The translations under genes were made by a program, and so were the position numbers. A stretch of DNA of 64,000 bases from an uncultured Rhodospirillales bacterium. GTDB taxonomy: Bacteria > Pseudomonadota > Alphaproteobacteria > Kiloniellales > Kiloniellaceae. The notes beneath the pieces are model-generated. The model made no database searches. It was not told the origin of the DNA and saw only the letters and a list, made by a program, of their open reading frames with translations. Positions 3,078-59,674 of this stretch are shown one piece after another (position 1 is the stretch's first letter; the number at the start of each line of letters is the position of its first letter). The DNA is taken from NCBI GenBank assembly GCA_913060675.1, contig CAJXUS010000017.1:3988-67987 (forward strand). The letters are read 5' to 3'.

Positions 3078-4454
3078 TTACATTTGGAATTTGGTGGCTT
3101 GCGGACTGCTGTTCCATAACTCGACAACTGAGGAGAGGGACTTTTTCAACAAATCATCATCAATATTAGTGAGATTAATCCGCACCCCTGATGGCGCCGA
3201 CACAGGATCAACTGCAAACAATTCAGAAGGCGACACACGCACACCACGTAGCCCTAGAGTTTCAGCAAATTCTTCAGCCTTCCAAGCCCCAGATAAAGGT
3301 ATCCAAAGATGTGAGGTTGCTTCATTGAACCGATAAGGCATATCAGCCAAGGCGATCTTCGCTTGACGCAACAAGTTGGCCGTAATTGTCGTGCGTTGAC
3401 GCTCCAGCTCAGCAGCTGTGCCATCCTTGATCCAGTGACAAGCAACCTCAGCCATCAAAGGTGGGGCCATCCAGCTTGTGGTTTGGCTTGCTGCAAGAAA
3501 TTGCGATAGCAGCCCCTGAGGCGGCATAAGAGTGCCCACACGTAATCCCGGAGATATCGTTTTGGAGAGACTGCTGATATAGACGGTTCGTTCAGGATTA
3601 TAAGCCGCTATTGGCTTAAAGTCAGAGCTTGATGGTCGTGGATTAACATCGTCTTCTATGACAAAAAAACCATACCTGTTTGCCATATCTGCAATCTCGG
3701 CAATGCGTTCCTCCGACATCGTGGCCGTCGTTGGGTTGTGTGCAAACGGCATGCAATAAAGCGCTTTGACAGAATGTCGAAGACAGGCCTGTTCTACAGA
3801 TTCAGGAACCAACCCGCCTTCATCTAAAGACACGGGCACTAGATTTATACCAAAGAACCGCGCGTAGTTTTTAATACCGGGGTAAGAAAGCTCCTCAACA
3901 AGAACTGTATCACCTGGAGAAGTCAACGCCCCCAGAGCCGCCGTTAGAGCTTGTTGTGCGCCGCCCGTGATAATAACCCTGGCCGGATCAGCTTTAAAGC
4001 CGCGACCATCAAGCCACTCACACAAAATTTCTCTATGGCGCAACAACCCCTGACTTTGCCCGTACTCCAACATGCCATCGAGGTTACTGTCTTTACTGAT
4101 TTCCATCAGAGAACGTCGCAATTGGGCTTCGAGATTGATAAAAGGCGGGGCATTGCGACTTAAATCTACCGCACCTGTCTCATCCAAGGCTTCTCGAATG
4201 TGTTGTGACTTTTCTTTTTTAGAACGTACAAAGCTCCCCCGGCCCGTTTGCTTGACCAAAAGTCCCCGTTGTTCAGCGAGATCATAGGCACGCAGGATAG
4301 TTCCGACGGTAACGCCGAGCTCATCGGCAAGATCCCGCATTGGCGGAAGCTTTTGCCCTTCAGTCAGACGTCCTTCTTCAATGTCCAACGCAAGACATTC
4401 GCTGATAGCACGGTACACTGATAACTTTGGATCTAGATTATGTGGAACCCACAT
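3078..4454 (-). CDS. MocR/GabR-type GntR regulator with PLP-dependent aminotransferase-like domain
   Basis: N-terminal wHTH (KLPPMRDLADELGVTVGTILRAYDLAE...GRGSFV), then an aminotransferase class I/II domain (NPT, IEDD, SLSKTISPGLRVG with the PLP lysine). Confidence 0.92.
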   Translation of the reverse strand: MWVPHNLDPKLSVYRAISECLALDIEEGRLTEGQKLPPMRDLADELGVTVGTILRAYDLAEQRGLLVKQTGRGSFVRSKKEKSQHIREALDETGAVDLSRNAPPFINLEAQLRRSLMEISKDSNLDGMLEYGQSQGLLRHREILCEWLDGRGFKADPARVIITGGAQQALTAALGALTSPGDTVLVEELSYPGIKNYARFFGINLVPVSLDEGGLVPESVEQACLRHSVKALYCMPFAHNPTTATMSEERIAEIADMANRYGFFVIEDDVNPRPSSSDFKPIAAYNPERTVYISSLSKTISPGLRVGTLMPPQGLLSQFLAASQTTSWMAPPLMAEVACHWIKDGTAAELERQRTTITANLLRQAKIALADMPYRFNEATSHLWIPLSGAWKAEEFAETLGLRGVRVSPSELFAVDPVSAPSGVRINLTNIDDDLLKKSLSSVVELWNSSPQATKFQM

Positions 4455-23154: not shown

Positions 23155-24345
23155 TTAGAGACGGATTTTTTTACGAATTCGAACACCAATAAAATTACCG
23201 GCAAGAGCAGTAAATAACCAAAGCCAGCCGTGAATACTGCCTGAAGCAACACCACTAAAAAATGCTCCAATATTGCACCCATAGGCGAGACGAGCCCCAT
23301 AACCTAGCATTAGTCCGCCAATAAGAGCCGTGATAATCCCTTTCGCTGTCACATTTTGAGATTTTCCAAATTTTCCAGCCAGAAAAGAAGCGCTCATCGC
23401 TCCAGCAATAATACCGATATTCGTAGCTGAAGAATCGTGTCTGAAAATCGATCGATCCAAGGCCGCCATACTGCCTCTCCAATAGGGTATGTCCGAAAGA
23501 TCTACGCCCAAAAGAGTAACCAGTTTCCCTCCCCACAAGGTAATACCAGAAGTTATCCCCCAAGGATGTCCCAGAGTTGCCAGCATCGCAAAATTCAATA
23601 AAGCCAACGCAACGGCACCAAGAACCAAAGGCCATGGCCCTTGGGTTAACCTGAAGAGATAGGACCTTTTAGGAGCTGCAAAAGTTTTAGAGGGTAGTTC
23701 TTTTATTTCAATTTTTTGAATGAAAAAATAAAGTAGCACGAAAACGACGAGGTGGAGAGCCAGAGCCAATTCCCACCCCCAAAGAGAGACCATTGATAAA
23801 CGATCAAATTTAGGGAGGCTGTGCCAAAAGGGTAAATTAATCGTTGCGAGGACCGAGCCCAACATGAATGTCAGAAGCGTGACAGCCATGCGAATACTAC
23901 CACCGCCAACGGTAAATAGTGTACCACTTGCACAGCCACCAGCTAGCTGCATTCCAATGCCAAAGATAAAAGCCCCCACTGCAACGCCTGTTCCAGCAGG
24001 ATTAACAAACCCACCGACCCTGTGGCCAAAAATACCACCACTGTCCAGTACAGGAAAAAACAGGGTAACGACTATGGCCAGCATAATGATCTGGGCTTTA
24101 AGCCCCGCACCCCATCGATCTGTGAGAAACCGGCGCCAGGCAGAAGTAAACCCAAATGCTGCATGATAGAGACTTATACCAAGAGCCACCCCCAATCCTG
24201 TCGCAATGGCAGCGCGATCTCCGACAAATAGATAAAGATAGGTGACAAGACCCACAGATAGAATCAGGGGTAAAAACCTATTTAATGGTGTAGTCACTTC
24301 AGATTGAACGAGCATTAAAAGCCTCAATTTAAACGAATCTGTCAT
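23155..24345 (-). CDS. YeeE/YedE (TsuA-like) sulfur-compound transporter
   Basis: GMQLAGGCASGTL and GARLAYGCNIGAFFSG motifs; multiple TM helices. Confidence 0.9.
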   Translation of the reverse strand: MTDSFKLRLLMLVQSEVTTPLNRFLPLILSVGLVTYLYLFVGDRAAIATGLGVALGISLYHAAFGFTSAWRRFLTDRWGAGLKAQIIMLAIVVTLFFPVLDSGGIFGHRVGGFVNPAGTGVAVGAFIFGIGMQLAGGCASGTLFTVGGGSIRMAVTLLTFMLGSVLATINLPFWHSLPKFDRLSMVSLWGWELALALHLVVFVLLYFFIQKIEIKELPSKTFAAPKRSYLFRLTQGPWPLVLGAVALALLNFAMLATLGHPWGITSGITLWGGKLVTLLGVDLSDIPYWRGSMAALDRSIFRHDSSATNIGIIAGAMSASFLAGKFGKSQNVTAKGIITALIGGLMLGYGARLAYGCNIGAFFSGVASGSIHGWLWLFTALAGNFIGVRIRKKIRL

Positions 24346-24604
24346 TATCTTAGGCCCGATTGCCGCTTACTTCCTTTCACAATTTTGTCAGATGGCTGTG
24401 TGCACTAATTTTATGTAAGGGAAAGGCTGCGCAAAAATCGTAACCTTTCCGCCATTCTCAAAAACAAACTCCGATCACAGTGATCACAACCCTCCAAATC
24501 AGTCAGGTTTGACATCTTTTGAGCACTGGAAACTAACGGTCATAACATGCCATATGAAGTTTAGTTCTTAATCATTGCTCATAATAACTGCTGGGAGGCA
24601 TACC

Positions 24605-25969
24605 GTGTTGTTTGATTGTCGTGGACACGAAGTAACAGCATTAAATCAAAACGCCGTTGATCATTTCGACAACACTGTCTCTCTGTTTTTGGCTCATTCG
24701 AAAAAAACACCCGAAGCTCTAAGCCTTACGCTTGATACAGATCCTCAGATGGTAATCGCTCTTGTTGCCAAAGGCTTCTTTTATAAGATGCTCGCCAAAA
24801 TAACTACGGACCCTATTGCCCTAGAAGCTGTTTTCAAGGCTAAATTAAGTGTCCGAGAACGCGGTGCAAATCATAGAGAAAGAGAACTCCTCCAAGCACT
24901 TGATGACTGGTGTTACGGTGATATGGATAAAGCCATCTCTCGCCTCGATAACCTATTGGATGTCTATCCACTCGATGCGCTTACTGTAAAACTTAATCAC
25001 GCTTGTCAGTTTCTTCGTGGCAAAAATCATGGCATGCGGGCATCGACAACAAAAATTCTCTCTGCCTGGAATGAAGGTATACGGGATTACGGTTTTGTTC
25101 TTGGTTGTCATTGTTTCGGACTTGAAGAAACCGGGTCGTATGCAGAAGCAGAAAAAACAGGAAAATACGGTGTAGAGCTTGCCCCAAATGATGCGTGGGG
25201 TACGCACGCTGTAGGTCATGTTCTGGAGATGTCCAATAGGCCGACCGAGGGTCTTGCTTGGCTGAACCAGTATCAAGATGAATGGGAACAGTGTAATAAC
25301 TTCTCCTATCACATGCACTGGCATAAGGCATTGTTTCACCTGGAACTTGGCCAAAAAGAAGACGTTTTAAAACTTTACGATTCATACATTAGAAAAGACC
25401 ATACCGATGATTTCCGCGATATAAGCAACGGGGTTTCGCTGCTCTATCGCCTGGAACTCGAAGGTGTGGATGTTGGCAACCGCTGGGAGGAGATGGCAAC
25501 CCTATCTGCGAACCACGTAAACGATCACAGTCTTGCTTTTGCTGATGCCCATTATCTCCTCGCAATTCTGAGTAGTGGTAATCGTAATGCTGCAGATGCC
25601 TTCATAGATACCATGCAACAAAAAAGCTTGGGTGAAGGCACTTCACAACAAGTATTCCGTGATTTCGGAATGCCACTCGCCAAAGCAATTCATGCCTGCA
25701 AAACAGGTGACGATGATAAGTGCGTTGACCATTTATTACCCGTATTTGATGATCTCCAACAAATCGGTGGCAGTCATGCTCAACGCGACGTATTCCACCG
25801 ACTGTTAATCGATGCGACAATCCGTTCAGGCCGTCACTCAACCGCAAAAAACTTGCTTAGCCGTCGCCTAGAAGCCCGTCCAGATAATATATGGGCTTTA
25901 CAACGTATGGACAAAATTTCAGGTGCAGGAGACGTTAGTTCTCGTGATAAAGTGGAAATGTCAGCTTAA
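24605..25969 (+). CDS. TTC38-like tetratricopeptide repeat protein (paralogue 1)
   Basis: FGLEETG, DAWGTHAVGHVLEM, HMHWHKALFHLE, SLLYRLELEG and GGSHAQRDVF motifs. GTG start at 24605 with GGGAGG upstream. Confidence 0.85.
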   Translation: MLFDCRGHEVTALNQNAVDHFDNTVSLFLAHSKKTPEALSLTLDTDPQMVIALVAKGFFYKMLAKITTDPIALEAVFKAKLSVRERGANHRERELLQALDDWCYGDMDKAISRLDNLLDVYPLDALTVKLNHACQFLRGKNHGMRASTTKILSAWNEGIRDYGFVLGCHCFGLEETGSYAEAEKTGKYGVELAPNDAWGTHAVGHVLEMSNRPTEGLAWLNQYQDEWEQCNNFSYHMHWHKALFHLELGQKEDVLKLYDSYIRKDHTDDFRDISNGVSLLYRLELEGVDVGNRWEEMATLSANHVNDHSLAFADAHYLLAILSSGNRNAADAFIDTMQQKSLGEGTSQQVFRDFGMPLAKAIHACKTGDDDKCVDHLLPVFDDLQQIGGSHAQRDVFHRLLIDATIRSGRHSTAKNLLSRRLEARPDNIWALQRMDKISGAGDVSSRDKVEMSA

Positions 25970-26019: not shown

Positions 26020-27351
26020 TCAGGCCGCGTTTTCTAAATCTATTGGTGTCCCGTCTTGAAAACGACTTAGTTTAAATCGTTTCAGATCATGTCCCGGTGG
26101 CCTACCAATCAATAGATCGGCCATAACCCGTCCAATAGCTGGCCCAATACCAAAACCATGACCACTCAATCCGGCAACGACATGGAACCCCGGAATAGTA
26201 TCTATCTCAGAAATAATAGGCAGGACGTCAGGCGATGTTTCAATCATCCCCGCCCAAGTCTCAACAAAAGGGGTATTAGCAAGTTCCGGAACATATTTTT
26301 GAAGATGCTTGCGCATTTGAATCAACAATTTTGGATCTGGTAATGGGTTCAAGACGCGCGTTTTTTCAAAAGGCGTAATCTGATTTTCATTCCATCTACT
26401 TCTACGGCTGATATCTGAGAAAAATGATTGATCCAGTTTGAAAGAAACATCCTGAAAGGATTTTCTCATAAGCGGTACAAATTTTGGGAAATATCGAAAA
26501 CTATTGGGAGAAATATTATGTGTGGTGTGATCTGCCAGAGCTATTGTATAGCCACCATCTTGCCTTTTACGAAAGGCAATTTTTTCTGAAACGGCATTAC
26601 CCAGATAAAAGTTAGCTACTGGAGATGTTCTTGCAACACAGCCTTTAACCTTTAGCTGCGGGAGCGAAACATTATGGTGTCCTAGCAGTAGAGAAGACCA
26701 TGCCCCAGTGGCAGAGACAACCCGACGCGCTCTTACTCTCCCCATCTCGGTAACGACACCCTTTAATTTTCCAGCTGATAGGTCAAGAGAGCGGACAGCA
26801 CAGTTTTCAATAATTTTGACATCTAATCTTTGAGCCGCACGAGCCAATCTTGGAACCGCAATTCTCGGCTCAGCCCGGCCATCACTTGCTGTATAGATTG
26901 CACTTTTCCAATGACTATTGGTCTGGCCAAGGAGTTCATTGGTTTCTTTTGCATTTATGAGACGGGTATCAAGTTGATGTTGACGCGCAACATCAAGCCA
27001 TTGTTCATTTTCTTTCTGCATCGCATTTGTTTCAGCCAGATAGAGACATCCGGCTTGCCGAAAACCAAGGTCCTCGCCAATCTCAGCAGAAAGACCTTTC
27101 CAGATATGAAGGCTTTCTTTCATTATCGGAAGTTCAGACGAATGCCTACCTTGTTGACGGACCCAACCCCAATTACGGCTAGACTGTTCTCCTGCAACAC
27201 GGCCTTTTTCGCAAACGAGAACCGACACGCCCTGCTTACCTAGGAAATACGCAATAGAGATGCCTATAATGCCAGCCCCAATGACGACAACATCAACAGC
27301 TTCTGGCAATTTGTCCTTAAATGTAATTGGAGTTTTGTCACTTATTACCAT
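26020..27351 (-). CDS. FAD-dependent oxidoreductase, DadA/D-amino-acid oxidase family
   Basis: VIGAGIIG dinucleotide-binding motif, EQSSRNWGWVRQQGR, WAGMIETSPD, GLSGHGFGIGPAIG. Confidence 0.9.
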   Translation of the reverse strand: MVISDKTPITFKDKLPEAVDVVVIGAGIIGISIAYFLGKQGVSVLVCEKGRVAGEQSSRNWGWVRQQGRHSSELPIMKESLHIWKGLSAEIGEDLGFRQAGCLYLAETNAMQKENEQWLDVARQHQLDTRLINAKETNELLGQTNSHWKSAIYTASDGRAEPRIAVPRLARAAQRLDVKIIENCAVRSLDLSAGKLKGVVTEMGRVRARRVVSATGAWSSLLLGHHNVSLPQLKVKGCVARTSPVANFYLGNAVSEKIAFRKRQDGGYTIALADHTTHNISPNSFRYFPKFVPLMRKSFQDVSFKLDQSFFSDISRRSRWNENQITPFEKTRVLNPLPDPKLLIQMRKHLQKYVPELANTPFVETWAGMIETSPDVLPIISEIDTIPGFHVVAGLSGHGFGIGPAIGRVMADLLIGRPPGHDLKRFKLSRFQDGTPIDLENAA

Positions 27352-47869: not shown

Positions 47870-49255
47870 TTAGCCAGCCATTAGGGACAGAGCTCTAGCT
47901 TCCGCTTTTTTCGCTTTATCCAACTGGCCAAGTCCTTTGTGTGCTCTGGCGACATACTGCCAATTTTGAACAGATGTCTTTTTCAAAGCGCAGCGTTCAT
48001 TAGCCAACGCGAGGGCAACATTAAACCGCTTTGCGCGCAAAGCAGCTTCCAAAAGCGTCCACCCAATGATATCACGCTGAGCATGACTGCCACCCAGACG
48101 ATGCGTACGATACCGTACAGCCAGTAGTCGATCGACACAGGTGCTGTATTCTTCGTTTTCGAAATCCTGTAGAGCCAAACAGAAAGGGAGACCGATTTCT
48201 CTGCTCATTGCTGTATTGGCATCAGTCGCATGATTAATATGCCGTTCGTTTGCACTGAGTAATGTCTTAGCTGCATCGGATCGACCGTCTGATACAAAGC
48301 TCATCATCGCGTGAACATCATTAAAAGCATAAAGAGTATCAGCCGCGCTCGGCTCCCACTTATCTGCAAGCGAAACCCACCGATCACCAACATCAACACC
48401 TAACAACTTTAAGCGCCACAACAACGCTGCAGCATCCAGTTCTTCATATTTATCAGCAGTTTGGTGAGCTGTTCTGAGACTGTTATCGTAAATATCAAAT
48501 ACACGGTCGACCTGACCAACATCCAGATGAAAAAGAGACAAGTGCCACCAGAGGTGGTTGGCAAAATGGCTTTTGGACCAACTGCCAGCTCTGTCCTTCA
48601 TAAAGTTAATGCCACCAGCCTGACGCCCCTGCATTTCCATCACATGTGAAACCGAATGGACCGCATAAGGATTGTCTGATCGTATTGCCAAAGACATGCG
48701 CCCCATCTCTTCAGCCTGAAAATAATCTGCGTTTTCTTCCAAGCCAAAAGAATAGAAACCAAGAACAAATTCGTACCCTGGTGTATCTTCCCCCCAAAGA
48801 GCAAAAACACGGGCAACGCAATCTCGTTGGCCAGCAACATCCCCTAAAAGAACATCTGTGAGATGAATGAGCTGAAGAGCCAGGAGATCAAAAGGGTTTC
48901 TTGTCAGAACTTTTTCCCATTGCTGGACTGCCCCAAAAAAATCACCGTCTATCCAAGCACGAACGGCTCTGATGTGGCCTTGCTCTCGTTCATTTGCCTT
49001 GCTCCAAAGAGCTTCGGCACAATGAAGGGCCGAAACCATTTTGTCATAGATCCGCGTCTCTAGTGTCTGGGTCAGCCAGGCCGCTTTAAAGCAGTGCCCC
49101 ATAACAAAATCAGGATGTTCTTCGAGAACTTTATCAATCATCCCCATCGGATCACCAAAAAAGTTCATCGTGCAGACATGCGCCTGCTCCATGGCTTCGA
49201 TAGCCTTGTGACTGTTATAGGAAACAGGCACTCCCCGACAATCTTTTAGGGTCAT
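47870..49255 (-). CDS. TTC38-like tetratricopeptide repeat protein (paralogue 2)
   Basis: FGLEENA, YAVHSVSHVMEM, HLWWHLSLFHL, ALLWRLKL and GGSHAQRDII motifs; starts 44 bp after the mdeB-like stop, with GGAG upstream. Confidence 0.85.
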   Translation of the reverse strand: MTLKDCRGVPVSYNSHKAIEAMEQAHVCTMNFFGDPMGMIDKVLEEHPDFVMGHCFKAAWLTQTLETRIYDKMVSALHCAEALWSKANEREQGHIRAVRAWIDGDFFGAVQQWEKVLTRNPFDLLALQLIHLTDVLLGDVAGQRDCVARVFALWGEDTPGYEFVLGFYSFGLEENADYFQAEEMGRMSLAIRSDNPYAVHSVSHVMEMQGRQAGGINFMKDRAGSWSKSHFANHLWWHLSLFHLDVGQVDRVFDIYDNSLRTAHQTADKYEELDAAALLWRLKLLGVDVGDRWVSLADKWEPSAADTLYAFNDVHAMMSFVSDGRSDAAKTLLSANERHINHATDANTAMSREIGLPFCLALQDFENEEYSTCVDRLLAVRYRTHRLGGSHAQRDIIGWTLLEAALRAKRFNVALALANERCALKKTSVQNWQYVARAHKGLGQLDKAKKAEARALSLMAG

Positions 49256-49299
49256 TGCATTCTCTCCAGATAAAAAACTCTACACTGCTTTGCCAACAT

Positions 49300-51687
49300 T
49301 TATTCCATTGATTTTCTGTCAAAGCGTTCTGCAGCCTTAGAAATCCAATGGTCGCTAATCCGGTAATGATCAAAAAGATCTATCAGATCACCACATTGCC
49401 CAAATGAATTCACGCCAAGTGGTGCAACCGCATGCCCCCGAACCCCACCCAACCAAGCCAAAGCCGCTGGATGACCATCAATTACCGTAACAATACGTGC
49501 ATCAGGGGCCAAAGGTTTCAAAAGATCTTCGACGTGGGCAGATTTGCCACCGTCAGAACCGATTAATCGTGCGCGTTCAAGGTCTTGCCACTCATTATAG
49601 AGCCTATCTGTTGATGTCACTGATAAAAGTCCAATATCAGGAATTTTTGACTTCAGATTATCAAAAGCCTTTAAGGCCTCCGGTGCAATAGCTCCGCTAA
49701 ACACAATTATTTTACTTGTTTGAGAAGCCGGCGGAACAAGCCAATAGCCGCCTCGTACAATATCTTCTTTGGTTTTGTCATCCAGAGTACGGTTCGGCTG
49801 ATCTAGCTGGCGAGTAGACAGACGAAGATACACAGATCCCCCGTCGTCGTCGTCTTGCATATGTGCAAAACTCCAGCCCATAATAACAGGAACTTCATCG
49901 GCAAAAGCAGGCTCAAAAGAAGTAAGACCTGGCTGCCCCATACCAATTAGCGGCGTTGATATTGATTGATGCGCACCGCCTTCTGGTGCAAGTGTTATCC
50001 CAGATGGGGTAGCAACCAGCATAAACCGCGCATCTTGATAACAAGCGTAATTCAGAGCATCAAGACCCCGCGAAATGAAAGGATCGTAAAGCGTTCCAAT
50101 CGGTAGCAAGCGCTCTCCAAAGAGACTGCCCGAAAGGCCGAGCGCAGCCAAATTCAAAAACAGATTGTTTTCTGCAATGCCAAGTTCAACATGCTGACCT
50201 TTGGGATGGCGATCCCATTTTTGCATGGAAGGAACTTTGTTCGCCCGAAAAGCATCATCTTTACGTTCACGCCCAAACAAGCCTTGATGATTAACCCATC
50301 CGCCTAGATTGGTTGAAACCGTCACATCAGGTGACGTAGTGACTATTCTATCAGCCAGATCACCCCCAGCTTTAGCCAAATCATTTAAGATGCGACCAAA
50401 CGTTTCCTGGGTGGATGCTTTATCCGTCTGGGAGAACGGTAATTCTTGGGGTAAAACCACTTTTCGGGCTTGCTTATGACCTGCCCCATCGCTCATGACA
50501 GATGCATCTTCAATAATCTGCTTTATCTCTTCCAGATCACCTTTAAGACCTGCTAAGTGTGCCCACTCTTCACCTTCGGGAACATCACAGCTTTTTTGGA
50601 ACTCTGCAAACTGCTGAGGGTTCATCAGTCCTGCGTGATTATCCTTGTGCCCTTGAAGCGGTAGACCATATCCCTTGACGGTATAGCAAACAAAGGTAGT
50701 CGGTTTATCATCGGGAACAGACTTAAAGGCTTCAAGAATAGTTTCCATGCAATGACCGCCAAGGTTGGTCATAAGCTTTTGAAGATCATCATCTTCATAA
50801 CTATCGATCAGCTCTAAAAGAGCTATATTATCTGGCTGGTCTTCTTTTATTTTTTTACGCCAAGCAGCAGCACCCTGGAAGGTCAAAGCAGAATAAATAT
50901 CATTCGGACAAGAGTTAATCCAACGACGGAGCGATGATCCGCCCGGCTTTGCAAAAGCTGCGCGTTGTAACTTACCATACTTGACGGTTATTACGTTCCA
51001 GCCAACCGCACGGAAAAACCGTCCTATGATACGAAAGAGATCCTCATTTACCGTACCATCCAGACTTTGACGATTATAATCAATGATCCACCAAACATTG
51101 CGAATATCGTGCTTCCAGGTATCCAGTAACGCCTCATAGATATTACCTTCATCCAGTTCTGCATCCCCTACCAAAGCAATCATCCGGCCGGGCTCTTTAT
51201 CACTCGGAATGATATCTTTATGACGAAGATAATCCTGCGTGAGCGCAGCAAAGTTAGTTACCGCAGCACCAAGTCCCACGGACCCGGTTGAAAAATCGAT
51301 CATGGCACCGTCTTTCGTACGCGACGGATAGGATTGAGCACCGCCAAAAGCACGAAAACCAGCCAATTTTTCCCTAGTTTGGTTCCCAAGAAGGTACTGA
51401 ATAGCATGAAGAACAGGACTTGCATGAGGCTTCACGGCAACGCGATCTTCAGAACGAAGTTCGTGCATGTAAAGCGCTGTCATAATGGTCGTGATAGAAG
51501 CACAGCTTGCTTGGTGGCCGCCAACTTTCAGACCATCCCGACTTTCTCGAAGATGGTTCGCATGATGAATTGTCCAGGTCGCAAGCCAGCGGACCTTGTT
51601 TTCAATTTCCAATAGCGCATGCGTATGCTCGTTTTCACCATCCCACGCATTATCGTACGTTACGTTTCCCGCTAACTTTGCTTGCAT
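49300..51687 (-). CDS. mdeB: Homodimeric AceE/transketolase-type 2-oxoacid dehydrogenase E1 (MdeB-like, probably 2-oxobutyrate)
   Basis: KVGGHQASCAS, KPHASP, STGSVGLG, ThDP motif GDAELDEG...N, ELGIAENN, EGGAHQS; directly downstream of methionine gamma-lyase as in P. putida mdeAB. Start placed at ATG 51687. Confidence 0.8.
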   Translation of the reverse strand: MQAKLAGNVTYDNAWDGENEHTHALLEIENKVRWLATWTIHHANHLRESRDGLKVGGHQASCASITTIMTALYMHELRSEDRVAVKPHASPVLHAIQYLLGNQTREKLAGFRAFGGAQSYPSRTKDGAMIDFSTGSVGLGAAVTNFAALTQDYLRHKDIIPSDKEPGRMIALVGDAELDEGNIYEALLDTWKHDIRNVWWIIDYNRQSLDGTVNEDLFRIIGRFFRAVGWNVITVKYGKLQRAAFAKPGGSSLRRWINSCPNDIYSALTFQGAAAWRKKIKEDQPDNIALLELIDSYEDDDLQKLMTNLGGHCMETILEAFKSVPDDKPTTFVCYTVKGYGLPLQGHKDNHAGLMNPQQFAEFQKSCDVPEGEEWAHLAGLKGDLEEIKQIIEDASVMSDGAGHKQARKVVLPQELPFSQTDKASTQETFGRILNDLAKAGGDLADRIVTTSPDVTVSTNLGGWVNHQGLFGRERKDDAFRANKVPSMQKWDRHPKGQHVELGIAENNLFLNLAALGLSGSLFGERLLPIGTLYDPFISRGLDALNYACYQDARFMLVATPSGITLAPEGGAHQSISTPLIGMGQPGLTSFEPAFADEVPVIMGWSFAHMQDDDDGGSVYLRLSTRQLDQPNRTLDDKTKEDIVRGGYWLVPPASQTSKIIVFSGAIAPEALKAFDNLKSKIPDIGLLSVTSTDRLYNEWQDLERARLIGSDGGKSAHVEDLLKPLAPDARIVTVIDGHPAALAWLGGVRGHAVAPLGVNSFGQCGDLIDLFDHYRISDHWISKAAERFDRKSME

Positions 51688-51730
51688 TAACCCGTCCCCG
51701 TAAAAAAAACACTTTAGTTTTAGTTTTTCA

Positions 51731-51764
51731 CCTGCCCTCAAAAACCTAACGACATGAGGGCAGG
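51731..51764. other. GC-rich 10-bp stem-loop between mdeA and mdeB
   Basis: CCTGCCCTCA-N14-TGAGGGCAGG; no U-tract immediately after it on the coding strand. Confidence 0.5.
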
Positions 51765-51774
51765 ATATTTTTAA

Positions 51775-53007
51775 TTATGCGCTTTTAGGCATCACTCTAA
51801 TATTACTTCCACCGCCTGCAATATCCAAAGCCTGCTCAAGATCAGAAAGAATATCCTCTTCCTCTTCCAGACCAACGGAAAGGCGAACCAGGCTATCGGT
51901 GATATCGTATTTCGCACGCTCTTCTTCGGTGTAAGTTGAGTGTGTCATTGTTGCAGGATGTTGAATGAGAGTTTCTGCATCACCTAGGCTAACAGCGCGA
52001 ACAATCATCTGACAGGCGTCAATAAAGTTACGCCCCATATCAAGACCACCCTTGAGTTCCAAAGCAATCATGCCACCAAAATCTGACATTTGCTTTTTGG
52101 CAACATCATAGTATTCAAAACTTTCGAGGCCAGGGTAGTACACTTTGCTAACCAAACTGTGGCTTTCAAGGTAACGCGCGACAGTCAAAGCAGATTTACA
52201 ATGGCGGTCCATACGTAAGTTCAAGGTCTTTAGACCACGCAATATCAGGTTTGCGTCTTGTGCTGAAAGCACAGCTCCCGTCATATCCTTTAAACCAACG
52301 AGGCGAATATCGTGCATGATCTCTGCAGACCCGACAACAACACCTGCCATTAAATCGCCATGCCCACCGAGGTATTTGGTCGCAGAATGCACAACGAGAT
52401 CGGCACCGAGTTCCAAAGGTCGCTGTAGATATGGGCTACAATAGGTATTATCAACAACAACGGTTGCGCCTTTAGTGTGTGCAACTTCTGAAATCGCTGC
52501 GATATCCACTACACGCATGTTCGGATTTGCTGGAGTTTCGAAATATACGATACGGGTTTTATCGTTGATGGCTTCTGCCAATTTTGCAGGATCGGTAAGA
52601 TCAACATGGCGAATTTTTACGCCAAAACGTTCCAGTCCATGGTTAAAGAAAGAGAAAGTGCAGCCATAGAGTGTCCGATCAACGATGATCTCGTCACCAG
52701 GATTAACAAGTGTCCAGAAAACGGAGGTTATAGCGCCCATACCTGAGGAGGTGACCAGTGCCGCTTCGCCACCCTCTAAAACTGTCATTCGTTCTTCGAG
52801 CAATGCAAGTGTTGGGTTTGAGATACGACTATAGATGTACCCACCTTCTTCTTCCTGAAAGCGGCGCCCGCCTTGTGCAGCAGTATCAAAGGCAAAAGTC
52901 GACGACATATATACTGGAGGGTTCAATGCCCCTTGATGATCCAGCGGATTATAAGCATGGTGAATTGCACGGGTTGCAAAGCCTTTTTTACCTGTGACGT
53001 CAGACAT
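51775..53007 (-). CDS. mdeA: Methionine gamma-lyase
   Basis: YSRISNPT, LYGCTF (the MGL-specific Cys next to the conserved Tyr), FETPANP, DNTY, SATKYLGGHGD and RAVSLGDAETL motifs. Confidence 0.92.
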   Translation of the reverse strand: MSDVTGKKGFATRAIHHAYNPLDHQGALNPPVYMSSTFAFDTAAQGGRRFQEEEGGYIYSRISNPTLALLEERMTVLEGGEAALVTSSGMGAITSVFWTLVNPGDEIIVDRTLYGCTFSFFNHGLERFGVKIRHVDLTDPAKLAEAINDKTRIVYFETPANPNMRVVDIAAISEVAHTKGATVVVDNTYCSPYLQRPLELGADLVVHSATKYLGGHGDLMAGVVVGSAEIMHDIRLVGLKDMTGAVLSAQDANLILRGLKTLNLRMDRHCKSALTVARYLESHSLVSKVYYPGLESFEYYDVAKKQMSDFGGMIALELKGGLDMGRNFIDACQMIVRAVSLGDAETLIQHPATMTHSTYTEEERAKYDITDSLVRLSVGLEEEEDILSDLEQALDIAGGGSNIRVMPKSA

Positions 53008-53063
53008 TTAAATATTCTCCCAGAATGAGCACTTTGTAATGTGTTATGTTTCACTTCTATATT

Positions 53064-53080
53064 AGCAACAGTTGTGCCAA
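53064..53080 (-). promoter_or_regulatory. Sigma54 (-24/-12) promoter for mdeA
   Basis: The minus strand reads TTGGCACAACTGTTGCT, an exact match to TGGCAC-N5-TTGC, 56 bp upstream of the mdeA start. Confidence 0.85.
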
Positions 53081-53131
53081 CTTAAATTTCTCATTTTTCT
53101 CAAACACTTAACTTAATCAGCGAAAATTTAA

Positions 53132-53149
53132 TGTAAGAATTATCTTACG
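53132..53149. promoter_or_regulatory. TyrR/PhhR-type box 1
   Basis: TGTAAG-AATTAT-CTTACG (TyrR consensus TGTAAA-N6-TTTACA). Confidence 0.7.
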
Positions 53150-53209
53150 GCCACAGATATACACATACCTTTTACTATATTTATCATTGATTTCAGAGAA
53201 GTAACGTGA

Positions 53210-53243
53210 TGTAAATATATTCTTACGTAAGGAATACTTTACA
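53210..53243. promoter_or_regulatory. Overlapping TyrR/PhhR-type boxes 2 and 3
   Basis: TGTAAA-TATATT-CTTACG (53210-53227) and CGTAAG-GAATAC-TTTACA (53226-53243), abutting the regulator's ATG. Confidence 0.7.
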
Positions 53244-54857
53244 ATGAGAGTTCAGCTTACTGGCGACAATCGTTTAGGAATCACCCAAGAAGTATTAACA
53301 GTGCTGGTAAAATCTGGCTTGGATATCCGAAACCTCGAAGTCACCACACACTATATTTACATGGATATTCCAGCGCTAAGAAAGCCAGGTTTAAAAGCCT
53401 TGGCAGAGGCGGTAAAATCAGTTCGAGGCATCCATGAGGTTATCGCCATAGATTTGCTCCCCACTGAGCGTCGTCGCTTACAATTACATGCTGTGCTCTC
53501 CAGCTTACCCGATCCTGTAATCGCCATAGATACCCAGGGCTTTATCACTCAAACCAACGAAGCCGTGCAAAAAATCACCAATAAAAGCGAAGCGAAGCTG
53601 CGGTGCTACCCCCTGGATAAACTATTAAACTCTCCAATTACGGCACTACTGCAACAAGCCGCATTTCAAATACCCGAAACGGAGATGGTGCTCGGCACAG
53701 AAACTTTCATGCTCCACGCAGAACCAATCACATCGCGTGACAAAAATGACACTGAAGTATCCGGAAGTGTTTTAATCTTTCAGCGCCCGACAAGAATAGG
53801 GCGCGCCTTTAGCGCACTCGACACACGGCAAGCGACAAGAGGTTTTAGTGCCATTCTTGGCGATACCGACGTAATGAAAAACATCAAAGCAAAAGCATTA
53901 CGATTATCAAAAGTCGACGCTCCCTTACTCATTCTTGGTGAAACGGGAACAGGTAAAGAACTGTTTGCAAGAGCAGCTCACGAAGCCAGCAATAGAAACA
54001 AACAACCTTTTCTTGCCCTAAACTGTGCTGCTTTACCTGAAAATTTAGCAGAGAGTGAGCTCTTCGGTTATGCGCAAGGCGCATTCACATCAGCGGCAAA
54101 AGGCGGTAAGCCAGGACTACTGGAACTTGCTGATACGGGAACGGTATTCCTCGACGAAATTGGGGAGCTTTCACCATACTTACAGGCCAAACTCCTTAGA
54201 TTTCTTCAAGATGGTACTTTTAGACGTGTGGGAGGCACTAAAGAAATTAGGGTCGATGTCAGGACCATCAGCGCAACCAACAGAGATCTCGAAAAGATGA
54301 TTGCAACCAATAATTTTCGGGAAGATCTTTTCTACCGCCTCAACGTTCTTTCAATTACGATCCCCCCTTTGCGCAACCGGGTCGAAGACATCCCCTTACT
54401 TGCCAGGCACTTTATATCACGAGCTGCTCGACAAATTGGTTGCCAGAAGCCAAGTATCTCAAGTGACTTACTGGAGCTCCTCAACAGCTACCCCTGGCCG
54501 GGAAACATACGACAGATGGAAAATTTATTATTCCGCGCGGTTTCCCTTTGTGATGAAGAGTATCTGTTGCCAAAGGACTTAGATCTAAGAATAGAAGAGC
54601 TACAGGATACAAGGCAGTTAGAGATAAGGTCAGCTTTCCAGAACACTTCTAATAGCGCTCTACACCAAGATGGGTCTAACAAGCCAACTGTACCCAGCTA
54701 CAAGGAGGCGCTCGAGATCTTTGAGAAGAACCTCTTCACGGAACTCTACCCTCGATACCCAAGTAGCCGTAAACTTGCACAAGCGCTCAAAGTATCCCAC
54801 ACAACAATCGCAGATAAACTAAGGAAATATAAGATCAAAGCTCCTTATCAAAGATAA
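53244..54857 (+). CDS. TyrR/PhhR/GcsR-type enhancer-binding protein (ACT-PAS-AAA+-HTH)
   Basis: ACT-like MRVQLTGDNRLGITQEVL, PAS LPDPVIAID, GETGTGKE, ESELFGYAQGAFTSA, DEIGEL, and TyrR-type HTH YPSSRKLAQALKVSHTTIADKLRKY. Confidence 0.92.
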   Translation: MRVQLTGDNRLGITQEVLTVLVKSGLDIRNLEVTTHYIYMDIPALRKPGLKALAEAVKSVRGIHEVIAIDLLPTERRRLQLHAVLSSLPDPVIAIDTQGFITQTNEAVQKITNKSEAKLRCYPLDKLLNSPITALLQQAAFQIPETEMVLGTETFMLHAEPITSRDKNDTEVSGSVLIFQRPTRIGRAFSALDTRQATRGFSAILGDTDVMKNIKAKALRLSKVDAPLLILGETGTGKELFARAAHEASNRNKQPFLALNCAALPENLAESELFGYAQGAFTSAAKGGKPGLLELADTGTVFLDEIGELSPYLQAKLLRFLQDGTFRRVGGTKEIRVDVRTISATNRDLEKMIATNNFREDLFYRLNVLSITIPPLRNRVEDIPLLARHFISRAARQIGCQKPSISSDLLELLNSYPWPGNIRQMENLLFRAVSLCDEEYLLPKDLDLRIEELQDTRQLEIRSAFQNTSNSALHQDGSNKPTVPSYKEALEIFEKNLFTELYPRYPSSRKLAQALKVSHTTIADKLRKYKIKAPYQR

Positions 54858-54871
54858 GAACTCTTCAAATA

Positions 54872-56896
54872 TTATTCCGCCGCGGCACTGGAGGGGTGAA
54901 TAATTTCATTCGCCAGCTTCCCCGTAAGCTCAACCAGATGAGAAAACTCGGAACTAAATGTTCCGATCCCCTGCGTTTGTGACCTCAATTCTATGATTAA
55001 GTCACTCATCTCTGCCTGCGGTAAAAGCGCCGTTATCTCATCCCACCCTTTCCAACCGTCCTTGGCATCAAAGCCCAGAATTTGTCCTCGCCTACGTGAA
55101 ATCAACGCCTGGCCATTGGAAGTAAACGGACTGGGAATAGAGATTTTTAACTCATAAATTGGCTCCAATAATGCAGGGCGACAACTGGAAAGCCCTTCCT
55201 TCATCGCCATAATTCCCGCTTTCCTAAACGCCAAGTCAGAACTATCGACCGCGTGATGTTGACCATCGAGAAGGGTCACGGCGATATCAACAACTTGAAA
55301 ACCCAAAGGACCCGATACAATATATTCTTTCACACCTGCCTGAACGGCAGGAATATGTTTTTTAGGAACCGAACCCCCTGTTACAGAGCTCTCAAAAATA
55401 AACCCGCTACCACGTGACAAGGGCTGTATATTCAGATGCACATCCCCAAACTCACCATGGCCGCCACTTTGTTTTTTATGGCGCGCGTGTGCTACTGTCC
55501 CCTTCAAAATAGTTTCTTTATAGGCGACCTTAGGTCGACGTGCTTTGACCGATACGTTGTATTGACGCTCTAATTTACTGAGGGCTACTTTGAGATGGAT
55601 CTCACCTTGGCCCCACAACAAAAGCTCATGTGTATCGGGATTACTTTTAAAAGAAAGAGAGGGGTCTTCTTCAGCTAATCGAGCCAATCCAGTAGATAAC
55701 TTGACTTCATCTTCATGCTTGAGAGTTTCGATAGAGAGTGAATATACAGGAGGCTCTATATCAGGACAAAAATCTTGATCTTTTAACAATCCATCTTGGG
55801 TTAAGACTTGCCCCGAACGCACCTCTTCCATACGCCCTAGTGCTGCAATATCTCCCTCACAAACCTCTCTCACTTTTTCATTTTTTTGACCGAGAATAAA
55901 ATTTAAACCACTAACTCTATGCTCCCCTAAATGATCCCCATCATGGATCTCCCCGCGCCAAATTCTTGCATAAGAGAGCTTGCCAATGTGAGGAACAAAC
56001 TGGGTTTTGAATACTTGAATAAGCTGCTTGTGATCAGGAAATGCAAGACGTTCGCGTGTAATCTCAGGTTGAGGGCAATCGTGTCGTAGAGTTTTCCAAA
56101 GCCGATTAATACCATAGCCATGTTCAGCACCGCCGATAAGAACCGGCACGACGAGATCGTCGCTCAGATCCTTTGAAAATTGCTGATATATCTCTTCAGA
56201 AGAAGGCGCTTCATCCTCCAGTAATTGCTCCAAAAGCACATCGTCGAAATCTGCGAGCCCTTCTAGCATATCCTGCCTTGCATCGGCTTCGCGTTGTTTG
56301 ATTACGTCTGGCATCTCGATGACATTAGAGCCGTCTTCGCCGTAGCGGTAAGCCTTTTCAGAAATCAGATCCACATACCCATTTATTTTACCCTCTTCCC
56401 GCAAGGGAACCTGCCGAAGAATGAGAGGTCGTTCCGACACATCCTGAAGCGCATCGAAAACTTCGGATACAGTGTGTGTTGAGGTATCAATTTTATTTAT
56501 AAAAATAAGGTGCGGAATATCATTTGTATCGAGAAAGTGGAGTAATGGCGACAAAGCCAAAGCTTTTTCCGGGTTGGGTTCGCAAACAACGACAGCGATG
56601 TCAACCACAGATAAGGCAGCGACGGTATCTTGATGAAATTCAACAGATCCGGGAGTATCTATCAGGGTCCAATTGTCGCCGAGATACTTAGTACGTGCGA
56701 GGGATAATTCGACAGACATATGCCGATCACGAGACTCCGGCGACGTATCACCGACGGTATTTTTCTCTTTTACAGTACCACGCCGCTGGATTTCTCCAGA
56801 CGCGCAGAGCAAGGCCTCCATCACAGATGTTTTACCACTGAGATATGGGCCAACTATGGCGGCACTACGGGCCGCCACGGATACAGATCCAGGCAT
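54872..56896 (-). CDS. Elongation factor G paralogue (EF-G2/FusA2-like)
   Basis: Divergent G motifs GPYLSGKT, DTPGSVEF and NKID; LLWGQGEIHL, HKKQSGGHGEFG, VDSSDLAF and LLEPIY. Start placed at ATG 56896 (GGAGG upstream). Confidence 0.9.
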   Translation of the reverse strand: MPGSVSVAARSAAIVGPYLSGKTSVMEALLCASGEIQRRGTVKEKNTVGDTSPESRDRHMSVELSLARTKYLGDNWTLIDTPGSVEFHQDTVAALSVVDIAVVVCEPNPEKALALSPLLHFLDTNDIPHLIFINKIDTSTHTVSEVFDALQDVSERPLILRQVPLREEGKINGYVDLISEKAYRYGEDGSNVIEMPDVIKQREADARQDMLEGLADFDDVLLEQLLEDEAPSSEEIYQQFSKDLSDDLVVPVLIGGAEHGYGINRLWKTLRHDCPQPEITRERLAFPDHKQLIQVFKTQFVPHIGKLSYARIWRGEIHDGDHLGEHRVSGLNFILGQKNEKVREVCEGDIAALGRMEEVRSGQVLTQDGLLKDQDFCPDIEPPVYSLSIETLKHEDEVKLSTGLARLAEEDPSLSFKSNPDTHELLLWGQGEIHLKVALSKLERQYNVSVKARRPKVAYKETILKGTVAHARHKKQSGGHGEFGDVHLNIQPLSRGSGFIFESSVTGGSVPKKHIPAVQAGVKEYIVSGPLGFQVVDIAVTLLDGQHHAVDSSDLAFRKAGIMAMKEGLSSCRPALLEPIYELKISIPSPFTSNGQALISRRRGQILGFDAKDGWKGWDEITALLPQAEMSDLIIELRSQTQGIGTFSSEFSHLVELTGKLANEIIHPSSAAAE

Positions 56897-57150
56897 AACG
56901 ACCTCCTTTGTTAAATATTGGTCGTCCACCCCTGCTCCAGGGGCGGTCCCCCCTGATTGGTATGAATATATATGTTTTCATACCGACTGTAAGAAAGGCA
57001 ACTAAAAAGTGAATTTTGATCTGATCATGGAGTACTATTTTCCGAACATTACTTGACTATTTAATCACGCCCCTCATCTTTGATACTCAAACCATTTCCC
57101 TCTAGTATTAGAGGTCCCTTTCACATTCGACATTTTTACGGGTTTCTCTC

Positions 57151-57804
57151 ATGGATAGAATGCGCCTCATAATTGGTAACAAAAACTACTCTTCATGGTC
57201 GTTGCGTCCATGGCTTGCAATGAAAGTTGCTGGCCTTGATTTTGATGAGCAAGTTATTCCCCTCTACGAGAGTGATACAAAAGAAAAACTTCTTGAATAC
57301 TCTCCTGTAGGAACGGTTCCTGTTCTCAAAGATGGAGATCTAACGATTAGTGATAGCTTTGCTATTCTTGAATACCTCGGAGAGAAATATCCCGATGCCA
57401 GACTTTTACCCGTCAACATAGCTGACCGTGCCAAATTGCGTTCTATTTGTTGTGAGATGCATTCTGGATTTTTCCCAATGCGTGGCACATTACATATGAA
57501 TATGCGTAAAAACATCACAATAAAATTGCCCGAAGATGTAATTGCTAATGTTGAAAGAATTAAGGATGTCTGGCGCAATTGCAGAGAGGAATATGCCAGT
57601 AAGGGACCATTTCTTTTCGGCCATTTCACCATTGCCGACGCAATGTATGCACCAGTTGTCAGCCGGTTTAAAACCTATGGCATCAGTCTTGACGGTGCTT
57701 GTGAAGAATACAGCCGTACCATGCTTAATCTGCCTGAAATGAAAGCTTGGTATCTGGATGCTATAAAAGAAACCTGGATTATCAAAGAAGCTGAAATCGA
57801 ATAA
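57151..57804 (+). CDS. Glutathione S-transferase family protein
   Basis: IIGNKNYSSWSLRPWL, SPVGTVPVL, DSFAILEYL, EMHSGF and FTIADAMYAPV motifs. Confidence 0.92.
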   Translation: MDRMRLIIGNKNYSSWSLRPWLAMKVAGLDFDEQVIPLYESDTKEKLLEYSPVGTVPVLKDGDLTISDSFAILEYLGEKYPDARLLPVNIADRAKLRSICCEMHSGFFPMRGTLHMNMRKNITIKLPEDVIANVERIKDVWRNCREEYASKGPFLFGHFTIADAMYAPVVSRFKTYGISLDGACEEYSRTMLNLPEMKAWYLDAIKETWIIKEAEIE

Positions 57805-57898: not shown

Positions 57899-59674
57899 CT
57901 AGAGACCTTTTTGCGGCTGCATGTCAGAAGCATCAATGCCTGCAACTTCAACCGGTTTTGTCATGGCATCACGGCGGAAAGGCTCACCGAGCTCCTGATT
58001 AAGAATAACCTCAATAAAAGTGGTTACACCATCTTTTTGCGCAGCAGTCGCTTCTCTCAATGTAGCAGTTAACTCTGCTTGAGATTTAACAGTTACGCCT
58101 TTGAGGCCACAACCTTCAGCAACTTTGGCATAACTCAAATGCGGATCCAATTCGGTACCAACGAAGTTGTTGTCATACCAAAGAGTCGTATTACGTTTTT
58201 CAGCACCCCACTGGTAATTACGGAAAATGACCATCGTGATTGCTGGCCATTCATCACGGCCAACAGAAGTCATTTCGTTCATGCTAATACCAAAGGCACC
58301 ATCGCCGGCAAAGCCAACAACAGGTACATCTGGGCAACCAATTTTAGCACCGATAATGGACGGGAACCCATAACCACAAGGACCAAACAGTCCCGGAGCC
58401 AGATATTTGCGCCCCTGTTCAAACGTTGGATAAGCATTACCAATGGCACAGTTATTTCCGATATCGCTGGAAATAATCGCGTCTTGAGGAAGGCCTTCTT
58501 GGATAGCACGCCATGCCATACGTGGAGACATACGGTCTGCATCACGGGTACGAGAATCTGCATTCCAAGATGTACCGGGATCATCATCTTCATGGTCCAT
58601 GCTGCTAAGTGTCTGCAGCCAGGAAGATTTTGTGTGATGGATAAGTGCTTTACGCTCTTCGCGTCCAGCATCACCAGCAGTTGGGCTTAACTGTGACAAG
58701 ATTTGCTGGGCAACTTGCTTTGCATCTCCACAAATACCGACGGTGACTTTCTTTGTCAGGCCAATACGGTCTGAGTTGATATCAACCTGAATAATGTTTG
58801 CATCTTTAGGCCAGTAATCAATGCCATAACCAGGCAGTGTAGAAAACGGGTTCAGACGGGTACCAAGAGCGAGAACAACATCTGCTTTGGCTATTAATTC
58901 CATCGCAGCTTTCGATCCGTTATAGCCCAAAGGACCAGCTGCAAGAGGATGACTTCCTGGGAAACTATCATTATGCTGGTAGCCACTGCACACCGCTGAG
59001 TCCAGACGTTCTGCCAAGGCCTGACAATCAGGAATCGCGCCGCCGATCACCACACCCGCACCGGACAGGATCACAGGGAACTTAGCATTGGAAAGCAATT
59101 CAGCTGCTTTAGAAATAGCAGCAGCCCCGCCAGCGGGAAGCTCGAGATCCACCATTTGCGGCAGTTCAATATCTATAATCTGAGTCCACATATCGCGTGG
59201 AACGTTAATTTGTGCAGGAGCAGAGCCGCGGATCGCTTTTTGAATAACCCGGTTAAGGACTTCAGCCATACGAGATGGATCACGGACTTCTTCCTGATAG
59301 CAAACCATATCCTTAAACAGAGCCATCTGTTCAACTTCCTGGAAGCCACCCTGCCCGATTGTCTTGTTCGCAGCTTGAGGGGTAACCAATAGCATTGGTG
59401 TATGGTTCCAATAGGCGGTTTTTACAGGCGTGACAAATCCTGTGATGCCCGGACCGTTTTGAGCAATACACATGGCGACTTTACCTGTGGTGCGGGTATA
59501 GCCATCACAAATCATCCCACCGTTGGTTTCGTGGGCAACATCCCAGAACTTAATTCCCGCTTTTGGAAACAAGTCCGAAATAGGCATAAAAGCTGAGCCG
59601 ATAATTCCAAAACCATGTTCGATACCATGCATTTGCAGAACTTTTACGAAGGCTTCTTCTGTCGTCATTCTCAT
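57899..59674 (-). CDS. xsc: Sulfoacetaldehyde acetyltransferase
   Basis: MTTEEAFVKVLQMHGI, FGIIGSAFMP, QNGPGITGFVT, ThDP motif GDGAFGISMNE...N, QWGAEKRN and ELGEPFRRDAM. Confidence 0.95.
   Translation of the reverse strand: MRMTTEEAFVKVLQMHGIEHGFGIIGSAFMPISDLFPKAGIKFWDVAHETNGGMICDGYTRTTGKVAMCIAQNGPGITGFVTPVKTAYWNHTPMLLVTPQAANKTIGQGGFQEVEQMALFKDMVCYQEEVRDPSRMAEVLNRVIQKAIRGSAPAQINVPRDMWTQIIDIELPQMVDLELPAGGAAAISKAAELLSNAKFPVILSGAGVVIGGAIPDCQALAERLDSAVCSGYQHNDSFPGSHPLAAGPLGYNGSKAAMELIAKADVVLALGTRLNPFSTLPGYGIDYWPKDANIIQVDINSDRIGLTKKVTVGICGDAKQVAQQILSQLSPTAGDAGREERKALIHHTKSSWLQTLSSMDHEDDDPGTSWNADSRTRDADRMSPRMAWRAIQEGLPQDAIISSDIGNNCAIGNAYPTFEQGRKYLAPGLFGPCGYGFPSIIGAKIGCPDVPVVGFAGDGAFGISMNEMTSVGRDEWPAITMVIFRNYQWGAEKRNTTLWYDNNFVGTELDPHLSYAKVAEGCGLKGVTVKSQAELTATLREATAAQKDGVTTFIEVILNQELGEPFRRDAMTKPVEVAGIDASDMQPQKGL

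Follow-up and report, generated by a model that had tools for sequence, protein, structure and literature searches.

The methionine gamma-lyase locus of a Kiloniella species

The DNA analysed here, hereafter the window, is a stretch of 64,000 nucleotides (positions 3,988 to 67,987 of contig CAJXUS010000017.1, assembly GCA_913060675.1) from a marine Kiloniella species (Alphaproteobacteria), its nearest named homologues being those of K. antarctica, K. majae and K. laminariae, and it carries a four-gene locus in which a methionine gamma-lyase gene (mdeA) lies divergent from the gene of a TyrR-family enhancer-binding protein, hereafter the activator. The subject of this study is the control of mdeA by that activator and the standing of the genes that follow mdeA, namely mdeB, encoding an E1-like thiamine diphosphate (ThDP) enzyme, and a gene for a TTC38-like protein, both co-oriented with it. 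The four genes and their coordinates were confirmed as given by an earlier first-pass annotation of the sequence (Table 1), with gaps of 87 nt between mdeA and mdeB and 44 nt between mdeB and the TTC38-like gene, and the activator was placed in the TyrR family both by its domains and by alignment to the full-length TyrR model.

MdeA passed the NCBIfam equivalog model for methionine gamma-lyase (NF005695, 690.7 bits against a cut-off of 666) and exceeded the cut-off of TIGR01328 (582 against 550 bits), with a match to PF01053 at E = 1.4e-144. The mdeB gene, whose start codon is the ATG at 51687, had been labelled an AceE-type E1; it has E1/transketolase domains, but the label needs qualifying as the aceE model was matched at only 205 bits against a cut-off of 860. 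Its homologues are named just “transketolase” or “pyruvate dehydrogenase E1”, no Pseudomonas sequences were among those found, and the enzyme is presumed to be the component which decarboxylates 2-oxobutyrate. An mdeB-like gene downstream of or near mdeA was also seen in Thalassospira, Aestuariispira and one further locus (L091), while within Kiloniella it was present in five of 11 loci and missing from six, a distribution which the activator tree suggests to be the result of a single loss. K. laminariae DSM 19542 is among the strains that have mdeB, and K. majae is among those without it.

Table 1. Genes and predicted regulatory features of the mde locus (positions in the window)
Feature	Position	Strand	Evidence or remark
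TTC38-family protein, 461 aa	47870-49255	-	zebrafish TTC38 homology; no Pfam family
mdeB-like homodimeric E1-type ThDP enzyme, 795 aa	49300-51687	-	Transketolase_N and PDH_E1_M domains
Hairpin, 10-bp stem, just past the mdeA stop	51731-51764	-	predicted RNA fold, -22.7 kcal/mol
mdeA, methionine gamma-lyase	51775-53007	-	NF005695, PF01053
Predicted sigma-54 (-24/-12) promoter of mdeA, TTGGCACAACTGTTGCT	53064-53080	-	exact TGGCAC-N5-TTGCT; also kept at all Kiloniella loci and at eight activator-mdeA loci outside the genus
A/T block, TAAnnnnTTTGA	53096-53110	-	between upstream activating sequence (UAS) and promoter; conserved island in intergenic alignment
TyrR-type box 3, CGTAAGATAATTCTTACA	53132-53149	-	centre ~63 nt upstream of the -24 element; putative proximal UAS
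TyrR-type box 2, CGTAAGAATATATTTACA	53210-53227	-	contiguous with box 1
TyrR-type box 1, TGTAAAGTATTCCTTACG	53226-53243	-	abuts activator ATG and overlaps activator Shine-Dalgarno; core invariant in 10 Kiloniella loci
TyrR-family enhancer-binding protein, 537 aa, ACT-PAS-AAA+-HTH, loop GAFTSA	53244-54857	+	Pfam, NCBIfam, 2JHE alignment

The activator and the mdeA promoter

The activator aligned end to end with the TyrR model NF008085, at 464 bits where the equivalog cut-off is 576, and is classed on this alignment as a member of the TyrR family and not as a TyrR equivalog. Residues 1-187 aligned with residues 1-190 of the crystal structure of the E. coli TyrR ACT-PAS region (2JHE, E = 6.9e-21), Pfam placed a PAS domain at residues 80-152, and the remainder of the protein matched Sigma54_activat (PF00158, E = 1.6e-66), AAA_lid_14 (PF25601) and HTH_50 (PF18024, E = 1.4e-15). 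Its sigma-54 contact loop reads GAFTSA where the canonical loop is GAFTGA, a variant found in 59 of 120 activator homologues. When 118 homologues were placed in a tree, this variant fell within one or two clades, those linked to lyase genes, and it is kept throughout the lyase-linked clade together with -24/-12 promoters. Besides that of the activator, the genome (a 100%-complete assembly) has no full-length TyrR-family gene, seven further hits covering just the AAA+ domain, and it also encodes rpoN (contig C9, 455.7 bits where the cut-off is 277). TyrR-family proteins were rare among alphaproteobacteria, occurring in 5 of 301 genomes.

The divergent region between mdeA and the activator is 236 bp long, and in it the predicted sigma-54 promoter sits 57 nt upstream of the mdeA ATG; this was the single full match to TGGCAC-N5-TTGC in the window. 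The predicted boxes match the palindromic TyrR consensus TGTAAA-N6-TTTACA, both at the target and at the activator's own promoter, with box 1 probably serving as an autoregulatory site as well as a distal UAS, and an equivalent of box 3 was seen in Thalassospira, Aestuariispira and other loci. When 10 Kiloniella loci whose activators are 67-91% identical were compared, the intergenic DNA was found to have diverged, leaving the boxes, the promoter and an A/T block, which we infer to be an IHF-like bending site, as conserved islands. The enhancer is fully readable, and the GAFTSA loop of the activator is diagnostic.

A scan of the 4.9-Mb genome with a loose box pattern (GTAAR-N6-YTTAC) gave 31 sites, three of them within 120 bp at mdeA, and no other region of the genome held two boxes. 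Nor did a box lie near any other of the 31 strict -24/-12 matches in the genome, so that mdeA was the sole pairing of the two elements.

Recurrence of the activator-lyase pair and probable replacement of MdeR

Outside Kiloniella, homologues of the activator (43-55% identity) were found head-to-head with a gamma-lyase gene in nine loci. These are from Thalassospira, from Aestuariispira, from two genomes that share another genus, from one genome (G056) by way of its second TyrR-like paralogue, and from four metagenomic or metagenome-assembled genome (MAG) loci (L090-L093); the arrangement occurs in at least five lineages besides Thalassospira and Aestuariispira. In every one of these non-Kiloniella loci a -24/-12 promoter preceded the lyase gene by 45-75 nt, and the three boxes were arranged as in Kiloniella. 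The gene after mdeA varied, being mdeB-like, an ABC transporter, an AI-2E-family transporter, a solute-binding protein or nothing, and in Thalassospira mdeB lay near mdeA but was parted from it by an inserted gene on the opposite strand. Two sampled homologues were exceptions to the lyase association: P0201, a long-branch sequence with the GAFTSA loop, adjoins a TonB receptor and a serine hydroxymethyltransferase gene, and a homologue from Azospirillum, which falls among the tree's non-GAFTSA sequences, adjoins a DAO-type oxidase.

True gamma-lyases, defined as scoring at least 660 bits, were present in 11 of the 301 alphaproteobacterial genomes sampled; the partner of the lyase was the activator in four and a divergent regulator of the Lrp/AsnC type in six, a sister genus within Kiloniella's own family being among the six. 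The simplest reading of this alternation is non-orthologous displacement of an Lrp-type MdeR by a TyrR-family activator. The locus would then represent a clean case of regulator displacement, in which one enzyme gene is under Lrp-type control in some alphaproteobacteria and under a sigma-54 activator of the TyrR clade in others.

The mde operon of P. putida resembles that of Kiloniella in having a methionine gamma-lyase gene followed by an E1-type ThDP gene and in having a local, divergent regulator; it differs in that its regulator is of the Lrp/AsnC type where that of Kiloniella is a TyrR-family sigma-54 enhancer-binding protein, with a -24/-12 promoter, and in lacking the additional TTC38-family gene. 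The inducer predicted for Kiloniella, L-methionine, is the same as that of the P. putida operon, whose Lrp-type MdeR is described as responding to L-methionine (Inoue et al. 1997, as cited in PMC8707732).

Precedents for control of mdeA by a TyrR-family or a sigma-54 activator are in silico only. In Shewanellaceae, mdeA was predicted to belong to an expanded TyrR regulon (Leyn et al. 2016, PMC5343134), where it is one among many targets of a global TyrR, whereas in Kiloniella the activator is dedicated on our evidence, adjacent to its target and phylogenetically alternating with Lrp-type regulators. A sigma-54 activator also called MdeR was predicted to control mdeA-metT in Clostridium (Nie et al. 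2019, PMC6615313), but this is a separate Firmicute system. The literature search on proteobacteria found no paper tying methanethiol to rpoN or a gamma-lyase to an enhancer-binding protein.

A regulator probably dedicated to mdeA

With TyrR, PhhR and GcsR the Kiloniella activator shares the ACT-PAS-AAA+-HTH architecture, the palindromic boxes, one of which covers the gene of the regulator itself, and an amino-acid catabolic target, and it could in principle be an ordinary TyrR/PhhR, sensing aromatic amino acids and controlling a broad regulon of which mdeA is one member. Its similarity to TyrR over the full length and to the ACT-PAS structure, the fit of its boxes to the TyrR consensus and the predicted Shewanella regulon all speak for such a reading. 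The genome does not, since it contains neither a further box cluster nor a further box with a sigma-54 promoter, and in lineages far apart the GAFTSA clade as a whole goes with lyase genes. In G056, which has two TyrR-like paralogues, it is the lyase-adjacent copy that belongs to the activator clade.

The classical target of PhhR/TyrR is phhA, the gene for phenylalanine hydroxylase. In the Kiloniella genome (C75:15678-17075) it is head-to-head with an Lrp/AsnC regulator, its region has no sigma-54 promoter and no correctly spaced TyrR box, and hmgA is absent from the genome; the regulators of phhA and mdeA thus appear to have been effectively swapped relative to Pseudomonas. A palindrome of the form TGTAAC-N4-TTTACA does lie directly before the phhA ribosome-binding site. 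Because the regulon scan found no further targets, and because of the context of phhA, the general-TyrR reading was rejected as very unlikely. The activator differs from TyrR, PhhR and GcsR in scoring below the equivalog cut-off, in its GAFTSA loop, in having mdeA as its sole visible target and in not having phhA as one, and its dedication to a sigma-54 mdeA(-mdeB) operon is strongly supported by the comparative genomics. This much of the operon proposed in the first-pass annotation stands; its inclusion of TTC38 as a conserved member does not, as described below.

The TTC38-like protein and its neighbours in other genomes

The label “TTC38-like” holds, as alignment with TTC38 of Danio rerio (A3KPN8, E = 9e-67) showed 32% identity over the full length. 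Its AlphaFold2 model is an all-alpha solenoid of 25 helices resembling tetratricopeptide repeats (TPR), with a pLDDT of 90.8. A weak TPR match at the C-terminus was all that Pfam and NCBIfam yielded, a sequence search of the PDB returned designed TPR proteins only, and Foldseek found generic TPR scaffolds at TM below 0.6 and no specific PDB relative. Among 133 diverse members of the family, however, a set of polar residues was near-invariant (E174, H200, H204, E207, H234, H238, D257, R281, R292, H315, S390 and Q393), a pattern which suggests that the family is made up of enzymes rather than scaffolds. Human TTC38 binds the hydroxamate panobinostat (PMC6885700) and is a metabolite quantitative trait locus for unidentified compounds (PMC5780481), and no function for TTC38 was reported in the literature searched.

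The window encodes another TTC38-family paralogue, which shares 28% identity with the first, at 24575-25969 (+), divergent from a YedE/YeeE-type sulfur-transport membrane protein (23155-24345, -) and convergent with a DAO-type FAD oxidoreductase (26020-27351, -).

Orthologues of the TTC38-like gene (64-98% identity) were compared at 80 loci, 11 from Kiloniella and 69 from other organisms, each with its 9-kb neighbourhood. The first-pass annotation had made TTC38 a third member of the methionine pathway and had called for a synteny survey of mdeAB with it; in this survey mdeA, mdeB or the activator was found within 9 kb of TTC38 in 11 of 11 Kiloniella loci and in none of the 69 others, so that TTC38 is not co-conserved with mdeAB outside Kiloniella and the proposal failed. 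Conversely, the nine activator-mdeA loci from outside Kiloniella all lacked TTC38, and two genomes without a true lyase (G112 and G131) have TTC38 orthologues of 60-63% identity.

What the survey gave instead was a different and unexpected partner. At 14 of the 69 other loci the TTC38 orthologue lay in or beside an operon of a LysR regulator, a 3-sulfinopropanoyl-CoA desulfinase and an acetolactate-synthase (ALS)-like ThDP enzyme, and at three more it was with the ThDP gene only (14-17 linked in all). The desulfinase of the TTC38-linked operon passes its model (NF042439, 646 bits against a cut-off of 600), and 4-nt stop/start overlaps are frequent in the desulfinase-ThDP-TTC38 operons. Variants of the layout included a locus without the ThDP gene (L078), one with the desulfinase downstream (L080) and one with an extra aminotransferase (L059), and in another genome (G006) a distant TTC38 paralogue is divergent from the desulfinase; it is with this G006 paralogue that the second copy in our window groups in the family tree. 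The extra gene of L059, from a Roseovarius MAG, encodes a class I/II aminotransferase (L059:10389-11597) which overlaps the TTC38 stop by 4 nt in a LysR-desulfinase-ThDP-TTC38 operon, and hints that this operon acts on an amino acid that contains sulfur, such as a C4 sulfinate, and not on 3-sulfinopropionate in its free form.

In the 301-genome sample a TTC38-family gene was present in 36 of 40 desulfinase-bearing genomes and in 43 of the 261 others (odds ratio 46, Fisher P = 4e-20, by statistics which ignore kinship and genome size), and in at least nine of the co-occurring genomes the two genes were within 3 kb of each other. A rule by which TTC38 always partners a ThDP enzyme was considered and rejected in its strict form, as six Kiloniella loci have no mdeB and both L078 and L080 have no ALS-like gene.

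An ALS-like protein, IlvX, is induced by 3-sulfinopropionate and is encoded in the cluster of the desulfinase AcdA in Variovorax paradoxus TBEA6 (PMC6370202). The operons of LysR, acdA-like and ilvX-like genes in which TTC38 orthologues occur resemble this cluster, although TTC38 was not reported as part of Variovorax-type desulfinase clusters in the literature searched. The Kiloniella genome has such an operon of its own on another contig (C5:87438-91497), with a LysR gene divergent from a desulfinase (620 bits, above the cut-off) followed by an ALS-like ThDP enzyme, but TTC38 is absent from it; unlike its orthologues elsewhere, the Kiloniella gene is detached from the desulfinase operon and sits behind mdeA or mdeB. 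The Kiloniella genes group together as a single clade of the TTC38 tree, whose sister clade holds most of the desulfinase-linked genes, and from synteny and tree together TTC38 appears to have moved once, in the ancestor of Kiloniella, from or away from a desulfinase context to its place behind the mde genes.

Of the first interpretation, the part on regulation is well supported; the part on TTC38 is not supported as stated and has yielded this association in its place. As the orthologues elsewhere are in a desulfinase operon, a general step from organosulfur compounds to propionyl-CoA is a likelier role for TTC38 than a methionine-specific one; we regard a role in organosulfur catabolism as evenly balanced and a methionine-specific role as unlikely. 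The mde and desulfinase contexts are nonetheless alike in that both end in propionyl-CoA and release reactive sulfur species, which favours some link with methionine. More speculatively, and with the odds rather against it, the TTC38 family, including animal TTC38, may consist of metal-dependent organosulfur enzymes acting with the desulfinase and the ThDP enzyme, the Kiloniella copy having been rewired under a methionine-responsive sigma-54 circuit. If so, catabolism through methionine gamma-lyase would have a step in common with the route from 3-sulfinopropionate to propionyl-CoA, and this would be the first functional handle on TTC38. The genomic link between TTC38 and the desulfinase is a concrete lead, and a more novel one than the regulator, in a family conserved from bacteria to humans.

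A model for the locus and its alternatives

Our preferred interpretation, which we hold to be probable, is that the locus is a sigma-54-dependent methionine gamma-lyase operon in which the divergent TyrR-family activator takes the role of MdeR and TTC38 is not part of the conserved module. In this model an amino-acid ligand would bind the ACT-PAS module; judged from the target gene this ligand is most probably L-methionine. The ligand-bound activator would oligomerise on the boxes, loop to the RNA polymerase-sigma-54 holoenzyme and open the mdeA promoter, and occupation of boxes 1 and 2 would throttle the activator's own gene too. MdeA would convert methionine to methanethiol, ammonia and 2-oxobutyrate, the E1-like MdeB would decarboxylate the 2-oxobutyrate en route to propionyl-CoA, and the TTC38-family gene would probably be reached by read-through. 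Because the lyase directly yields methanethiol, models of the flux of volatile sulfur stand to gain from knowing how it is turned on in marine bacteria.

Several observations weigh against this interpretation. The contact loop is GAFTSA and not GAFTGA, so that productive contact with sigma-54 is judged from the co-conserved promoters alone. The ligands of the TyrR-family members characterised so far are aromatic amino acids or glycine, and not methionine, although GcsR shows that the family can change its ligand; if methionine is the ligand here, it would be a third class for the family. The stable hairpin just past the mdeA stop may attenuate transcription into mdeB and TTC38, or these two genes may be transcribed independently of mdeA. 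Finally, TTC38 stays next to mdeA at all 11 Kiloniella loci, even after the loss of mdeB, and TTC38-family genes are enriched in lyase-bearing genomes (9 of 11 against 70 of 290, P = 1e-4, again ignoring kinship and genome size), so that TTC38 may yet have some role related to methionine.

The hairpin after mdeA is GC-rich, is kept in position but not in sequence across Kiloniella and is followed by no U-tract, and it is possibly a partial terminator or a stabiliser of the mRNA. In the Kiloniella loci without mdeB (L003-L008) a stronger hairpin, with an 18-bp stem, lies in the 149-nt gap between mdeA and TTC38, and since loci with and without mdeB alike have a stable hairpin after mdeA, the main transcript may be that of mdeA, with read-through beyond it. 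Neither a terminator nor a promoter-like element was found in the 44-nt gap between mdeB and TTC38, and the TTC38-like gene has its own Shine-Dalgarno sequence; as the gap is short and without a terminator, read-through probably extends to TTC38, and on these sequence features we lean towards co-transcription of TTC38 with the mde genes.

The persistence and enrichment of TTC38 are what would be expected were it an integral third enzyme of the gamma-lyase pathway, handling methanethiol or the enamine intermediate or serving as a partner of the E1. That it lies on the same strand as mdeAB with no intervening terminator, that it tends to follow a ThDP enzyme gene in mde and desulfinase contexts alike, and that the invariant His, Glu and Arg residues of its family suggest an enzyme would also fit. 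Such a role is nevertheless improbable, as synteny confined to one genus is weak evidence and is set against the empty neighbourhoods of the 69 other loci, the absence of TTC38 from the nine activator-mdeA loci of other lineages and the close orthologues of the lyase-less G112 and G131.

TTC38 might conversely be an independent transcription unit, placed after mdeA/mdeB by a neutral accident of rearrangement in the Kiloniella ancestor. One relocation would account for the pattern, given the single Kiloniella clade in the tree; the hairpins after mdeA and before TTC38 are compatible with separate transcription, and TTC38 is at a strand-switch boundary, next to a convergent eda-kdgK-ilvD group. 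The lack of a detectable promoter-like element in the 44-nt gap argues otherwise, as does the survival of the arrangement through divergence to ~83% protein identity and through the internal deletion of mdeB, and we consider this explanation less likely than read-through from mdeA, though it is a better candidate than the third-enzyme role.

Other genes near the mde locus

Beyond the activator, and convergent with it, an EF-G-family paralogue (54872-56929, -; NF009379, 944 bits) lies 14 nt past the activator stop; it is found at that position in the window and in L011 and is absent there from most other Kiloniella loci. Further along are a glutathione S-transferase gene (57151-57804, +) and a gene for the sulfoacetaldehyde acetyltransferase Xsc (57899-59674, -; 954-1024 bits), which make the neighbourhood of the mde locus rich in organosulfur catabolism genes. 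One of the loci compared, L001 (JBALWN010000008.1), is on a 215-kb contig deposited as part of a Halopseudomonas aestusnigri MAG, but it is fully syntenic with the Kiloniella locus, with proteins 91-99% identical, and is probably a mis-binned Kiloniella contig.

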